Of a stretch of DNA of 64,000 nucleotides, positions 5,168 to 56,372 are shown piece after piece. The notes under the pieces were generated by a model. That model worked only from the letters and a program-made list of their open reading frames with translations, ran no database searches and was not told where the DNA came from. The stretch's first letter is position 1; each line of letters starts with the position of its first letter. A program made the position numbers and the translations under genes. Origin of the DNA: Octopus vulgaris (taxonomy: Eukaryota); NCBI GenBank assembly GCA_951406725.2, contig OX597825.1:48732001-48796000 (forward strand). Reading direction: 5' to 3'.

Positions 5168-5975
5168 TTATATAAAAGGGCTTAGTAAAATAAATTACTT
5201 TGCCGCATACTGAACTCATTAGAAATAGCAGCTAAAAAACTTTTTTAAAGCTATTTCTAATACTTAAAGAAAATCTCTCTCATATAGTGTTTGCTTAACT
5301 CAACTCACGAAAGTTTGGGGGTAAAGACATCAAAAAATCAAATGCAAAGGTTATTTGAGAACGTACGTTTCAAGATTAGTCAACACGACACTTCTATCAT
5401 CAGCTCAGAAACTCCTTGGTTTGGATTTGAAAACACTGAAAGTGAGAGCATACCCTTTCGGCTTCTCATCGCTTTCGAAGATCTGCTCGTAACTAACAGT
5501 GCCAACAAACTCAAATATGCAAGCGAAGAATTTCTGTTCTCCCCTTTCCACCAGCGTGGGTTAAAATCAGCAAACACTATGCTTATTTCGGTAAAATCCG
5601 AAGCATTAATTAGAGGGAGATTAATTATAATTTCAACAATTGAGGGTAAAATTAATTAATTATTAATCAATTTCACCAAGTGTTCAGTATGCAAAGGGAC
5701 CATTTTTTTGATGTCTTTACCCCCAAACTTTCGTGAGTTGAGTTAAGCAAACACTATATGAGAGAGATTTTCTTTAAGTATTAGAAATAGCTTTAAAAAA
5801 GTTTTTTAGCTGCTATTTCTAATGAGTTCAGTATGCGGCAAAGTAATTTATTTTACTAAGCCCTTTTATATAATGTAATAATTTGAATTCGCCTTAAATG
5901 GTCCCTTTGCATACTGAACACTTGGTGAAATTGATTAATAATTAATTAATTTTACCCTCAATTGTTGAAATTATA
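5168..5975. mobile_element. ORF-less, hammerhead-bearing two-arm element inside (TA)n (PLE-type terminus / retrozyme-like)
   Basis: Apparently exact inverted repeats 5168-5337 vs 5703-5872 and 5626-5705 vs 5896-5975; (TA)n on both sides; HHR at 5352-5413. Confidence 0.7.
5352..5413 (-). ncRNA. Type I hammerhead ribozyme, intact core
   Basis: Minus strand reads ugag-CUGAUGA-(stem II)-GAAAC-guac-GUU-cuca. Stem I is ugag/cuca; stem III region is palindromic (AACGUACGUU), as in PLE minimal HHRs. Confidence 0.7.
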
Positions 5976-6469
5976 TATATATATATATATATATATATAT
6001 ATATATATATACATATACATGTGTGTGTGTGTGTATGTATATAATATGTATATATATATATATATGTATATCTTCATTCTAAACATAATTATAAATGAAA
6101 ACAAACATTGAAGGATCACTTAATATTTTTCAGTACAGTATCATCTAAGTTTAGAAGGAAAAGTTGACAGTCATTTTGAAGTTTCAGCCATGTAAGTTTT
6201 CATTGAGACAGACAGACAGAATTTATATAGGAACACACAAACTTACCTATATGCAGAAACGAATACACCTCCAAACACTAACATACATAAAATATTAGCA
6301 TCAACATGATGGGACATACACGTAACAGAAATACTCGCGGAAGCATCGTTGGATATATACATATAAAGCATACTGATATACACATGCATATGCACTCGCT
6401 TAAGCAAGAAAAACATAGACATGCGTGTATGTGTGCGTTTGTAGGAAAAGGTGTATAAAGGTGCAACGT

Positions 6470-6720
6470 GAAGACTCACTCATGTGGAAGATGCGGTTTC
6501 AGTGGGGAAAAGGAGCAAGAGTTAAAACTAGGAGGAGAAAGTAAAATGGTAGAGAAAGAGCTGGGGACGAAGAAGCTTCAGAGGGGACAGGTGAATTTGA
6601 AGAAGAGAACTGTAAGAGACGAAATAATTGGAGAGTGATAGAGTAGGATTGGAAACAGCGGAATATGCAATTGATGGTAAACTGGAGGTGCTAACAGAGG
6701 GGTCATGCAAACTAGAACTG
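6470..6720 (-). mobile_element. CR1/L2-group LINE RT C-terminal remnant
   Basis: Degenerate translation resembles the RT C-terminus of this group (..SL..YF..YSS.L.. then SF.P.T..). Heavily decayed. Confidence 0.4.
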
Positions 6721-6887
6721 CTCTCAATAGGTCATTTTAGTCGATCTGACACCAAACTGGATGATATAATCAGTGTGCAGAATCAGTTTTAATGTATTTC
6801 TCTTTTGATGCAACAAAACTTTAGTAACTTTATACTCACTGTGTATTGAGAAATTTTATGATGTGAAGCAATGTCTGAAAATTATTT

Positions 6888-7056
6888 ATACATACATACA
6901 TACATACATACATACATACATACATACATACATACATACATACATACATGCATATATACATACATGCATACATACATACATACATACACACATACATACA
7001 TACATACATACATACATACATACATACATACATACATACATACATACATACATACA
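6888..7056. repeat. (ATAC)n microsatellite
   Basis: Direct reading. Confidence 0.97.
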
Positions 7057-7227
7057 TATACACTCGCGAGTGCGCACAAATATATATTCCAGTGGGTGAG
7101 AAGTCTAAAAGAATCTAATTGGAATAAGAATTGAACGATAAATTCTTGAGTAAACAAAATATTTAATCCATAATCGTTAGACTGATAAAATATATTTTGT
7201 CGAACTAACGCTTATGGATTAAATATT

Positions 7228-52427: not shown

Positions 52428-55216
52428 GCGTATTGTCGAGAGTTGTTACCAGTATTTGAGTATAACGATTTGCGAGGACATTATTATCATCCGTTATATC
52501 GTACGTCGGACATGCGATACAACAAATAGTCACATTCATAGAAGGATATAGACACACATTAATGCTGTACACGACCAATTCTTAATTCATTAAAATTTTC
52601 ATGGTACAGAATAACGGTATTTTAATGCATGAGAAGGGAAGATAATTTCAAGAAATAAGAAATAAAAACTCAATCAATTAACATTTTATGAAAATATACA
52701 CATCTTTATCAAAATTTTCCAATACTGATATGTTGATATTATTATGGTATATTTCAGGATATCTAGTATCACACCCTTACCCTAACACATGCATTTAAAA
52801 AAATACAAGACGACATGTTATTATGAAGGTACATTCGTTATTATATTGCGTATTAGAAATTCGCACGACAAAGAACTTTCCAAAATATCTCAATATATAT
52901 ATTAATACTAAAATCATAAAAATCAATAGGACAGATAATAGGTTATCATACAAATCTGCCTTTACCCGAGACACAGCGCATTAAAAGCTATTGCAATGTT
53001 ACCGAAACATATTGTGGAGCCGTTATATTTGACATGTTTTCTCATTATTCAATCTCCACTATAGTCTTTTATATAGTCTATTTTTAGAAAATGTCATTAA
53101 CATTTATCTTCGTAGATTTACAGCACCACAATTCCATGCACTTCTATTTAATAATAATTCCTTGTTACGACACTGCAGAGTCGAATACAATATAATGGCT
53201 GCGGTTGGCGAGACACGTCATCTATCAGAATCAAATTAGTTTTAGTCAAGATAACAATCAACAAATGCTGCCAATATTTTCCATATTTATATGCATATTT
53301 TTGCTGCTATTTTGTATAATGTTGTTGCTTATTGATATCTAGAGTTGTCTTTGTGATAGCATGAAAGTGTTTTGGTAACTGAGCCTAAAGTTTTAACTGT
53401 TACCTCTCTCCATACTCCTGAAAGATGTTGGATTTAGAGTTTTCAAATACTGTCGCTGTTATTGTGGTTCTTTTCTGGGTATAAATTGTTCTTTATTTGA
53501 TGATGCAGACTATTTGGATACTACGATGAAATAATTGATCGGTTATTTTATAGTACACTTTCAACAACATTTTGTTACTTCTCTGATAACTGGAGTATAT
53601 ATTTGAAAAAAGAAATTCTAATATTGGCGTTTTCTTTATTCAGAGCAAGTAACTTACCGCCATTGTCACACTCCCAACTTTCTCAATGTAAAGTCAATAT
53701 TGGTTAGTGCATTGCTCTCCATCGGGGTATCTCACCGCAAATATTTGCTCAACAAACTCTAACAGATTCTTCTGCACATTTGTATCTGTCCAAGAGATAA
53801 GTGGCACGTTATCTTTTATTATTCCCTTTATAATTATTCTTCACAGCCCGCTTTTTCAGCTATTGTTATTTCTTTCTCGCCAAAAACAAATTTTCCATGG
53901 GCTCCAGTAATATTGATTCGCTCTTTTTGACAAATTACTCGGGTGAAAAGTTTATTATAAAGCTTCATGTTAAGATGGCATAGAAAACAATGAGAAATGA
54001 AACAAAACATTGATAGAATAAAACTATCCGGACGGTGGAGTTGAAATACTCATTTAATAATATAATGCTAAAACCATTTCCTATTACGAACTGATTTCTC
54101 GATTTCATAACGTTTAAATGAAAAATATAATTTTCCAATTCACAAGAAATGAGATCATAGTTTTGTAAAGAATTCACTACATCCTAATTTCCCAGAAAAT
54201 GTTAGATAGAAGGCAAATGTCATTGAATATATATATTCTGTCATAATAGTTTGTGGGAAATACATCACAAGATGCTGCTGTTATCTACTTTGGTCCAGCT
54301 TTGATAAACTTCAATGATTCCAGACATATAATGATCTATTATGGTTCTATAACTTTGAAAGGTGGTTTCGCTGAAGCATTGATGTGTTTGTAGTTTTACC
54401 AACACACATTCACACACAATGATGCTCATATCACACACAAAGACATACATAAATTCATAAATGTGCTCATGACGCAGCCACGCATATGTATGTCAATGTG
54501 TATGTATGTATGCGCATGTATATACATACATACATATATATATATGTATATATATATACATATATATATATATATATATATATATATATATATATATATA
54601 TATATGTACACACATATAAATATATGTATATACGCATGCATACATATATAATATAATATATGATATGATACAATATAATATAATAAATATACATACATAT
54701 ATATATATATATATATATATATATATATATATATACATGTACATGTATGTTTGCATATATGTATCATTTGAAGTTACATAATGCGGCCTGGATATCACGA
54801 AAGATGGGATTGAAATGATTACAAAATGGCTGCTTTGTATAGAGAAGACAGTGAATATATAAAGTGGAGACAAGATGATAGATATAAAACACTAAATACA
54901 AAGTCACGGTGGTTCAAAAATCCGGTGGCCTTTACCATTAGATATAAAATAACTTTACATTGTTATTGTACAATCGTATATATAGATTAGCATATAGTAT
55001 ATAAGTTTTGAAAATTAGATAGAAACTGAATTGAAATGTTATATATATAATTATATATATATAATTTCAGTAAAACAATTAAGATTCAAGTGAGTTCCAA
55101 TGAATTCACATGAATGTGGTACTTAACTTAGCTTCACCAGAAATCTTTATGGTATTAACCATAAAATAATGTGGGGTGATTATAAACAAGAAAAAAGCAA
55201 CAAGAATGGATTAGTT

Positions 55217-55307
55217 GTTCAGTACAATTGTTTCATACGAAGAACAGATTTATTAAAAGCTGTAAAAATTGCAACAAATACAAGCGTCCTGTATTCATCA
55301 GCCAAAA
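55217..55307 (-). ncRNA. Type I HHR, intact core (sense 3' terminus of the PLE)
   Basis: uuuugg-CUGAUGA-auac..guau-GAAAC-aauu-GUA-cugaac. Confidence 0.75.
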
Positions 55308-56220
55308 CACATATGAGTTTTCCAAACATCCTATGGGGTGAGGCTACACTCATGAAGTATCGAAGAGAGTTCTATGAAAAGCAAAAGTTAGATTGTAAGC
55401 AGACTTAAAATGTTTTCTAATGATGTACAGTTTTATAAAAGGTTCTAAACAGGTACAGTTAGAAAGAAAGAACACCAGTGGAAGAGCTCACAGATATCTA
55501 TTTAAGATATATTAGAGTTTAGTTTTTTTAGTAAATACAAGATAGACCTAGCTCTATACGATTATTCTATACGATTTTTAAAAAAATATTTAAGAGTCTT
55601 GATTTTTGAGTGAATACAAGATGAACCTAATTCGATACGGTTATTAAAAAAAATTTTTTTTCTATGCTTTAAAATTTCATATGTCTTCCATGGAGCAGAG
55701 TTGGCAACCTACCCTGTTATTTCTATAAGGCATCGCTCTTCTAACTATTTCCCAATTAAGGTTATATTTAATATTATTACTTTTGAGTTCCCAGATCTTA
55801 CTGGAAAGTGTGGTGCAGCCAGCTTTATGACGTAACTTAAAAGAGGAGATATGTTTGTTTAAATTTTATAGTACAACCCCAATAAAAAAAAATTGTTATT
55901 CTCAGTAGTTATGGTACATTTATAGATTACGTTGTGGACCCCACACATACCAGGTTCCGGGCATTTTGACTTAATCCTACAATTACACCTAGGGGGATCA
56001 TCTTCAGATTTAGAATTATTTAGGGATAGATATCTCATATTGCTGCTATTCAGATAATTATGAGTATAATTATCGTTATTATAGGTAATGTTGTTATCTA
56101 AAGCTGTGTTATCATTTATCGATCCGCTTACACTATCATTTAGCTCTATAGCCATATCATAATTACCCCCATTATTGGTATTAGCCTCACTCCCTAGGAT
56201 GTTTGGAAAACTCATATGTG

Positions 56221-56311
56221 TTTTGGCTGATGAATACGGGACACTTGTATTTGCTGCAATTTTTGCAGCTTTTAATAAATCTGTTCTTCGTATGAAACAA
56301 TTGTACTGAAC
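56221..56311 (+). ncRNA. Type I HHR, intact core (inverted pseudo-LTR copy)
   Basis: CTGATGA 56227-56233, stem II atacgg/tcgtat, GAAAC 56294-56298, palindromic CAATTG, GTA 56303-56305. Confidence 0.78.
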
Positions 56312-56372
56312 AACTAATCCATTCTTGTTGCTCTTTTCTTGTATATATATATATATATATATATATATATAT

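Follow-up and report, generated by a model that had tools for sequence, protein, structure and literature searches.

Six two-armed insertions associated with hammerhead ribozyme (HHR) motifs and (TA)n tracts lie in a 64,000-nucleotide stretch of the Octopus vulgaris genome (GenBank assembly GCA_951406725.2, contig OX597825.1, positions 48,732,001 to 48,796,000 of the forward strand), which is here called the window and numbered from its first letter. We consider it probable (roughly 0.8) that all six are products of the insertion of Penelope-like elements (PLEs) into (TA)n, loci 3, 5 and 6 being truncated PLEs and loci 1 and 4 being retrozymes that were copied in trans. The six loci are a mixture and not one system: three are PLE ends, two are retrozymes, and locus 2 is placed in neither class. 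The first-pass annotation of the window had proposed a set of non-autonomous self-cleaving RNAs; this description suits loci 1 and 4, which are stand-alone HHR units of predicted cleavage activity without an open reading frame (ORF), but not loci 3, 5 and 6, which are PLE ends. The layout common to the loci is the ordinary signature of PLE insertion and is not specific to retrozymes, and half of the loci that were flagged are plain PLE ends. Because the insertions of the families of loci 1 and 4 (F1 and F4; families are named for their loci) bear the same two-ended signature, they were likely pasted in by a Penelope enzyme.

Results

Layout of the six insertions

Self-comparison of the window revealed inverted arms at all six loci (Table 1), each of which is a head-to-head (5′-to-5′) insertion with its 3′ ends outward. 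The common two-arm layout of the first-pass annotation, with a left arm sense on the minus strand and a right arm sense on the plus strand, was recovered throughout, and so were, for loci 1, 4, 5 and 6, the described 5′-to-5′ fusion and the entry of the two 3′ ends into (TA)n, each at its own point of the unit, although the TA sequence to the left of locus 6 is imperfect. Loci 2 and 3 had been drawn too short and extend further left, to about 11830 and 27822.

Stand-alone units at loci 1 and 4

By structure, F1 and F4 are assigned to the non-LTR (long terminal repeat) retrozymes, as stand-alone ORF-less families of tandem HHR units. The F1 unit is 560 nt long with a GC content of 34% and a longest stop-to-stop frame of 88 amino acids; the F4 unit is 504 nt long with a GC content of 30% and a longest frame of 68 amino acids; and each unit has one type I hammerhead motif. 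Family counts were based on searches of the 2.8-Gb genome (227 contigs), with the best 40 candidates scored per search, and the census is partial. F1 gave 262 exact matches to a 50-nt HHR sequence and 2028 first-look candidates, with copies 100% identical on many contigs, and F4 gave 1956 candidates. The other F1 loci surveyed (20 obtained through best matches and 39 in genome order) consist of the 560-nt unit alone in 59 of 59 cases, from a partial monomer to approximately 12 units per arm. Likewise, all 43 other F4 loci (28 + 15) are unit-only and wrap round the unit, which forms a dimer in the window. Both samples are skewed to the youngest copies among approximately 2000 candidates each.

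A junction with an ORF was absent from all 59 F1 loci, all 43 F4 loci and all 30 records of F1 sister subfamilies. No PLE protein match fell inside F1 or F4 units, such matches being found only in flanks beyond the TA tracts, and Pfam was blank for the two frames of locus 1. The sister subfamilies, which were reached through a motif in common with variant contigs, are older (70-85%; 928 exact motif matches) and keep the unit size, both ends and the HHR core. Contigs from four runs guessed to be RNA (four studies) cover 29 of 29 F1 bins, and those of three of the four include the head-to-tail joint. These contigs were not used as evidence because they cannot show transcription, strand, ends or circles; circular-junction reads, which the first-pass annotation had suggested, cannot prove circles either, since a ligated circle and a tandem transcript give the same junction sequence.

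Two side observations concern these families. An older relative of F4 (approximately 70%) occupies positions 34378-34935 on the plus strand of the window, where it wraps one unit, has its long end in (TA)n at 34938, and retains a decayed core at 34649. In record L268 (2563-3131), unit positions ~100-300 of F1 look like a mosaic of other F1 parts, which suggests template switching.

PLE ends at loci 5, 6 and 3

Judging from their sequences, loci 5, 6 and 3 are 5′-truncated ends of ORF-bearing PLEs. Copies of F5 were located through exact matches to the 40-nt HHR of locus 5, of which the genome has 1320. One copy (L171), to whose termini the arms of locus 5 are 99-100% identical, has an intact ORF of 1312 amino acids with reverse transcriptase (RT; YVDD), a CX4CxxC linker and GIY-YIG. 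Among 12 long minus/plus pairs hand-picked from the first 100 of the 1320 matches listed, several further pairs hold long pieces of this ORF, and pairs 2.5-6.5 kb apart readily yielded ORFs. F5 appears to be a young autonomous endonuclease-bearing (EN+) PLE of the Neptune/Nematis type, a type assigned by motif under a label that spans both clades; it differs from such PLEs in its 54-nt tail and its HHR core, CUGAUGC.

Locus 6 has a frameshifted linker and GIY-YIG on the minus strand, recognised by motif, and F6 relatives (including L186 and L189) carry RT and EN fragments in broken pieces with RWK, DKT and CxCX5C. Because these three are marks of the Hydra clade (PMC8557442, section 11), F6 is assigned to that clade, in agreement with its insertion into (TA)n. 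It also resembles the clade in its C-terminal GIY-YIG and its HHR. F6 differs in its long Asn-rich inserts and its 60-nt stem II domain; its 3′ untranslated region (UTR) measures ~1.2 kb, and its tail is ~121 nt long, compared with the 30-40 bp described in the available text of PMC8557442. That clade includes Hydra-1_Obim of Octopus bimaculoides, which has a HHR (Craig et al. 2021, PMC8557442). By-eye comparison indicates that F6 is another family; a decayed copy in the flank of record L044 matches, also by eye, the HHR row and the protein of Hydra-1_Obim (PMC8557442 supplement).

Locus 3 is homologous to the 3′ end of F5 (z 13.7), contrary to the earlier statement that the loci have no sequence in common. 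F3 is an older family with 3436 candidates; in 2 of 24 other loci, pieces of an ORF with 49-53% identity to F5 lie in the opposite arms, and the copy L222 shows 53% identity to F5 residues 984-1257. F5, F6 and F3 display a partial tandem of the pseudo-LTR (pLTR), an inverted 5′-truncated copy, a tail at one end, and a HHR in the pLTR. The first-pass annotation had noted a single coding locus, and local GIY-YIG sequence does occur only at locus 6, whereas elsewhere in the genome F3 and F5 bear ORFs. It had also held that its proposal would fail if all arms mapped to termini of ORF-bearing PLEs; they do so at three of the six loci (3, 5 and 6) but not at loci 1 and 4. Neither for 20 frames of the window nor for four PLE ORFs did Pfam return an RT or GIY-YIG family; PLE identity is based on motifs and on tblastn among the sequences of this analysis.

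Locus 2 may belong to either class. F2 is old (376 candidates; 70-82% to other copies), reaches at least 760 nt upstream, and shows no clear tandem in the copies surveyed; in none of 24 other loci was an ORF joined to it within 1.5 kb. Both an EN+ PLE and a retrozyme would fit.

Several further observations touch on the PLEs. Long Asn-rich inserts occur in the ORFs of both F5 (L171) and F6 (L183-L190), and such inserts have been reported in rotifer Penelope (PMC3846280). A young intact Hydra-clade family, H1, was represented by L310-L339 (for example L318; G000:C8:30168715-30172542), with an ORF of 717 amino acids, the RT motif YKDD, 136 scored matches at 97-100%, the HHR core CCGAUGA in place of CUGAUGA, and two ends ~73 nt apart. 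A second copy of the locus-3 family end lies at 17953-18210 on the minus strand and adjoins a piece that recurs in the central part of locus 3 (28411-28504). Other repeat ends, at 41430-41598 and 34980-35300, lie in the TA tracts of locus 5 and of the old F4 relative; they were seen beside TA in a few other loci and are possibly other PLE ends.

Hammerhead motifs

Type I HHR cores lie at 5403, 35834, 36338 and 55301 on the minus strand and at 56227 on the plus strand. A strict descriptor found three cores against a shuffle mean of 0.15 (maximum 2) and a loose one found four against 0.8 (maximum 3), with 40 shuffles as the control; this enrichment is not a blind test, because the descriptor was tuned after the window had been seen. 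Both descriptors missed the variant cores of locus 5, CUGAUGC on the minus strand and CUGAUGG on the plus strand, which were read by hand; the motif is minimal, with a bulged base ahead of stem II, and stems I and II fold. The outward HHRs claimed for the arms are borne out by the cores at loci 1, 4 and 6 and by the variants at locus 5, but the HHRs of loci 2 and 3 are degenerate, and the right arms of loci 1 and 4, which begin past the cut site (unit positions 23 and 83), are without one. Rfam gave no hammerhead family among 69 window matches at E ≤ 1, most of which were microRNA models on simple repeats. The hammerheads of F1 and F4 are regarded as predicted ribozymes; the F1 core is identical in eight of eight subfamily variants.

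Two 3′ ends, TA tracts and junctions

Each family has two fixed 3′ ends past the HHR cut site, a short end (S) and a long end (L), 54-125 nt apart. When unit positions are numbered from the cut, the ends lie at ~193 and ~294 in F1 and at ~173 and ~261 in F4; the spacing is 54 nt in F5, ~121 in F6 and ~63 in F3. Past the L end, F1 and F4 units return to their own HHR, whereas F5, F6 and H1 run into the ORF. In the four young families (F1, F4, F5 and F6; 150 records), one S and one L end were combined in 69 of the 69 two-arm insertions with both ends canonical: 32 of 32 in F1, 5 of 5 in F4 (L073 being ambiguous), 18 of 18 distinct insertions in F5 (19 records), and 14 of 14 in F6. None of the 150 records was S+S or L+L. 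The remaining records are one-armed (21 F1, 16 F4, 8 F5 and 11 F6) or have one end non-canonical or unseen (6 F1, 7 F4, 7 F5 and 4 F6). Record L268 comprises two insertions scored as one, both S+L; three extra F4 cases, one of them borderline, are S+L, as are four of four H1 pairs read by eye. The non-random orientation of arms expected in the first-pass annotation is evident in F5, where 31 of 33 neighbour pairs closer than 10 kb among the first 100 HHR matches listed are divergent, two are on the same strand, and none is convergent.

Of 91 canonical F1 ends, 89 have a TA tract no more than 30 nt away, against a background of 5.2%. TA is also present at the 5′ flank of 13 of 21 one-arm F1 insertions, and the tract therefore pre-existed; an origin of (TA)n wholly from RT slippage is disfavoured by the same count. 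Both arms of one insertion carry the same subfamily haplotype, and the arm-arm junctions are scattered across the whole unit with overlaps of -18 to +11 nt. The HHR cut site is crossed by 80 of 96 arms, but the way in which the loci were found inflates this number. An excess of arms starting at the cut was considered and rejected, as the two apparent cases among the 96 proved to have ambiguous junctions.

A very common element of ~210 bp at 56376-56588 of the window is likewise bordered by (TA)n at either end; 106 fetched loci match one of its ends and 90 the other, and 41 and 51 of these, respectively, also lie beside TA.

Table 1. Positions in the window of the arms of the six loci, their inverted matches and associated motifs (S, short 3′ end; L, long 3′ end).
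Feature	Positions	Strand	Description
Locus 1, left arm	5167..5705	-	F1 unit 215-560 then 1-193; S end into (TA)n 5110-5167
Locus 1, predicted type I hammerhead of F1	5352..5411	-	Core 5403; predicted cut after 5360; palindromic stem III loop
Locus 1, right arm	5704..5975	+	F1 unit 23-294; L end into (TA)n 5972-6011; no HHR
Locus 1, inverted arms	5164-5337/5704-5877 and 5630-5705/5896-5971		99-100%
Locus 2, left arm	11830..12300	-	Old family F2; degenerate HHR with long stem II; L end near 11830; F2 homology spans 11830-12165
Locus 2, (TA)n between arms	12308-12353		
Locus 2, right arm	12426..12614	+	Degenerate HHR, core 12464; S end
Locus 2, inverted arms	11963-12156/12426-12614		80%
Locus 3, left arm	27822..28280	-	3′ end of an old Neptune/Nematis-type PLE (F3); tail ~63 nt; decayed HHR; inner boundary approximate
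Locus 3, right arm	28620..28990	+	S end; decayed HHR; inner boundary approximate
Locus 3, inverted arms	27889-28029/28849-28986		83%
Locus 4, left arm	35515..36513	-	Two tandem F4 units; predicted HHR cores 36338 and 35834; L end into (TA)n 35474-35517
Locus 4, right arm	36509..36599	+	F4 unit 83-173; S end into (TA)n from 36594; no HHR
Locus 4, inverted arms	35612-35716/36496-36599		91%
Locus 5, left arm	41630..41865	-	3′ pLTR of F5, probably a young autonomous PLE; S end; minimal HHR 41754-41793
Locus 5, right arm	41864..42129	+	L end; 54-nt tail encoding part of the N-terminal frame of the PLE ORF; HHR 41912-41951 with core substitution
Locus 5, inverted arms	41630-41841/41864-42075		99%
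Locus 6, left arm	55060..56181	-	5′-truncated Hydra-clade PLE (F6); HHR 55301-55223; L end; Asn-rich linker, CxCX5C and frameshifted GIY-YIG at about 55560-56181; ~840-bp internal deletion of UTR near 55445
Locus 6, right arm	56182..56342	+	HHR 56227-56305 with 60-nt stem II domain; S end into (TA)n 56342-56375
Locus 6, inverted arms	55181-55346/56182-56347		95%

Discussion

A possible mechanism of insertion

The first-pass annotation had supposed that copying proceeds from either side of a break in (TA)n; this would fit our data and the published behaviour of a PLE protein in vitro. The GIY-YIG endonuclease of the PLE would cut both strands of a (TA)n tract, and from each free 3′-OH RT would start on a tandem or circular RNA at one or the other of two internal sites, in most cases where a short stretch resembles TA. 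Growing toward each other's position, the two cDNAs would be joined 5′-to-5′ at random stopping points, with an overlap of 0-11 nt or a small gap, whereas priming at a single end would leave a one-arm insertion. Since the template must span the HHR cut site, a cleaved linear monomer would not serve; the RNA would be either an uncleaved multimer or a circle that had been religated. According to Frangieh et al. (2024, PMC11167929), the protein of the Poseidon PLE PAc of Anolis cuts and extends both strands, two internal RT starts set the tail, the protein is a predicted dimer, and insertion does not need HHR cleavage.

We tentatively extend this proposal as follows, as a possibility that we hold to be clearly the less probable: F1 may be a spreading, protein-free circular-RNA parasite of a helper to which it is unrelated in sequence, copied by a dimeric PLE protein through rolling-circle target-primed reverse transcription, with one fixed start per subunit and each subunit extending one end of the (TA)n break. 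If so, the rule of one short and one long end would be a general mechanism behind the unexplained inverted structure of PLEs, and the 560-nt RNA together with the intact Hydra protein of 717 amino acids or the Neptune-type protein of 1312 amino acids would form a minimal test system. H1 and F5, which are young, intact and of similar age to F1, are candidate helpers.

Alternative explanations

F1 and F4 could be the pLTRs of an autonomous PLE with unsampled ORF-bearing copies, in which case all six loci would be ordinary truncated PLEs. This holds for loci 3, 5 and 6, the retrozymes of Xenopus match pLTRs (bioRxiv 10.64898/2026.07.22.740005), and only the best 40 candidates were scored per search. 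However, the return of the F1 and F4 units to their own HHR past the L end contrasts with the entry of F5, F6 and H1 into the ORF, and none of the 59 F1, 43 F4 and 30 sister records joined an ORF, whereas F5 pairs readily gave ORFs; we regard this explanation as quite improbable. Unlikely, too, in our judgement is an inverted arm formed when one template, which may be antisense, is copied by self-priming or fold-back, or when a single RT switches templates, with arrays arising through later unequal exchange. Self-priming from junction palindromes has been proposed for rotifer Penelope (PMC3846280), and recurring variants inside arrays fit later local exchange. Nevertheless, the junctions are spread over the whole unit with short overlaps or gaps, and the second arm ends at a fixed internal site of the RNA that is often further 3′ than the end of the first arm, which a fold-back cDNA cannot supply. 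It is scarcely credible that the loci are fold-back DNA elements in TA sites, resembling miniature inverted-repeat transposable elements, or palindromes produced by assembly: the near-perfect inverted arms of loci 1 and 5 and the TA flanks would suit such an origin, but the arms are asymmetric and randomly 5′-truncated with family-specific 3′ ends, RT-bearing copies refute it for F5 and F6, and the arms of old loci differ by 5-20%, unlike mis-assembly.

Several observations weigh against the insertion of retrozymes in trans by PLEs, which we nonetheless prefer. No significant sequence similarity links F1 or F4 to F5, F6 or H1, and a search for helpers found none in five PLE remnants in flanks either. 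A rare ORF-bearing master of F1 or F4 is possible, as only the 59 F1 and 43 F4 loci of the youngest-biased samples were surveyed. The F1 HHR is not the minimum free energy fold (z +0.9), lacks the G10.1-C11.1 pair, and receives no score from Rfam; its covariation is modest, with three stem pairs changed on both sides among eight related sequences and a score matched by 7 of 500 shuffles. Exceptions to S+L pairing, all read by eye, are found in older families, outside the four young ones: L224 of F3 is L+L (against seven S+L), L215 of F2 is S+S, and L282 of an F1 sister subfamily is L+L (against about 11 S+L). The targeting of (TA)n was judged from filled sites alone. In PMC11167929, no difference in start site between the strands was detected, and priming occurred without target homology. 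Finally, unit variants recur within arrays, with period 2 in L037 and irregularly in L050 and L267, so that rolling on one monomer circle as the sole process is not supported; the recurrence may reflect a multimeric template or later unequal exchange.

Relation to known systems

PLE traits already in print include inverted arms, a tail on one side only, targeting of (TA)n and the start of RT at two internal sites, and a PLE origin of retrozymes has likewise been proposed. An inverted 5′-truncated copy, a tail often at one end only, and a (TA)n bias are described in PMC8557442, a head-to-head arrangement was noted in rotifer Penelope (PMC3846280), and minimal dimeric HHRs of PLEs are described in PMC4209133. 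Recently active PLE families have been counted in Octopus (PMC13282606), in the available text of which the word "ribozyme" does not occur.

Metazoan non-LTR retrozymes were defined by Cervera and de la Pena (2020, PMC7229834), who describe RNAs of 170-400 nt and name PLEs as a "strong candidate" for the mobiliser. F1 and F4 resemble them in lacking an ORF, in their low GC content, and in the head-to-tail arrangement of units that each have a single type I HHR. The units of 504-560 nt exceed that size and fall inside the 51-972 bp given by Li et al. (2026, bioRxiv 10.64898/2026.07.22.740005), who derived vertebrate retrozymes from pLTRs by co-occurrence and phylogeny; the available text of that preprint treats neither insertion anatomy nor molluscs. 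Compared with the retrozyme-pLTR kinship of Li et al., no matching pLTR for F1 or F4 was found among F5, F6 and H1. Dispersal in (TA)n with the two-arm, two-end signature of PLEs, as seen in F1 and F4, is not described in the accessible portions of either source. PAc resembles the octopus families in its AT-rich targets, in two RT starts that lie past the HHR, and in that both strands are cut and extended; the octopus families add near-strict S+L pairing and short TA-like matches at most starts, whereas PAc showed neither a strand preference nor homology at the start (PMC11167929).

Retrozymes with the full PLE insertion signature, and cephalopod retrozymes, appear to be new relative to the literature that we found. 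Cephalopod retrozymes were not found in print in a search short of most subscription papers and of Repbase, and the supplement of PMC7229834 may list some; neither retrozymes with the two-arm signature nor a counted short-long rule was found in print within the same reach of subscription papers. The mobiliser of animal retrozymes is stated to be open in PMC7229834 and in the 2026 preprint, as is the origin of the inverted structures of PLEs in PMC8557442 and PMC3846280. ORF-less HHR repeats with a complete PLE signature beside autonomous PLEs provide direct genomic support for PLE-driven mobilisation, and near-strict S+L pairing sets a quantitative rule for which any mechanism has to account. 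Furthermore, a very young 560-nt family together with young intact PLE ORFs makes an in vitro test practical.

Other repeats in the window

Two LINE (long interspersed nuclear element) 3′ ends, 98% identical and in opposite orientation, lie at 43480-44000 and 61021-61540 beside ATT/TAA repeats and have a tail with a restriction-like endonuclease; we take them to be Dong/R4-like. A Tc1/mariner-type element with 42-nt inverted ends occupies 9652-10951, with a Transposase_1 match in the frame at 9948-10700. The segments 488-684 and 2161-2358 form an inverted pair (85%), the translation of which presumably resembles pieces of Helitron Rep. Partial direct repeats (~80%) with coding-like remnants at 49786-52428 are probably the 5′ region of a decayed retroelement.

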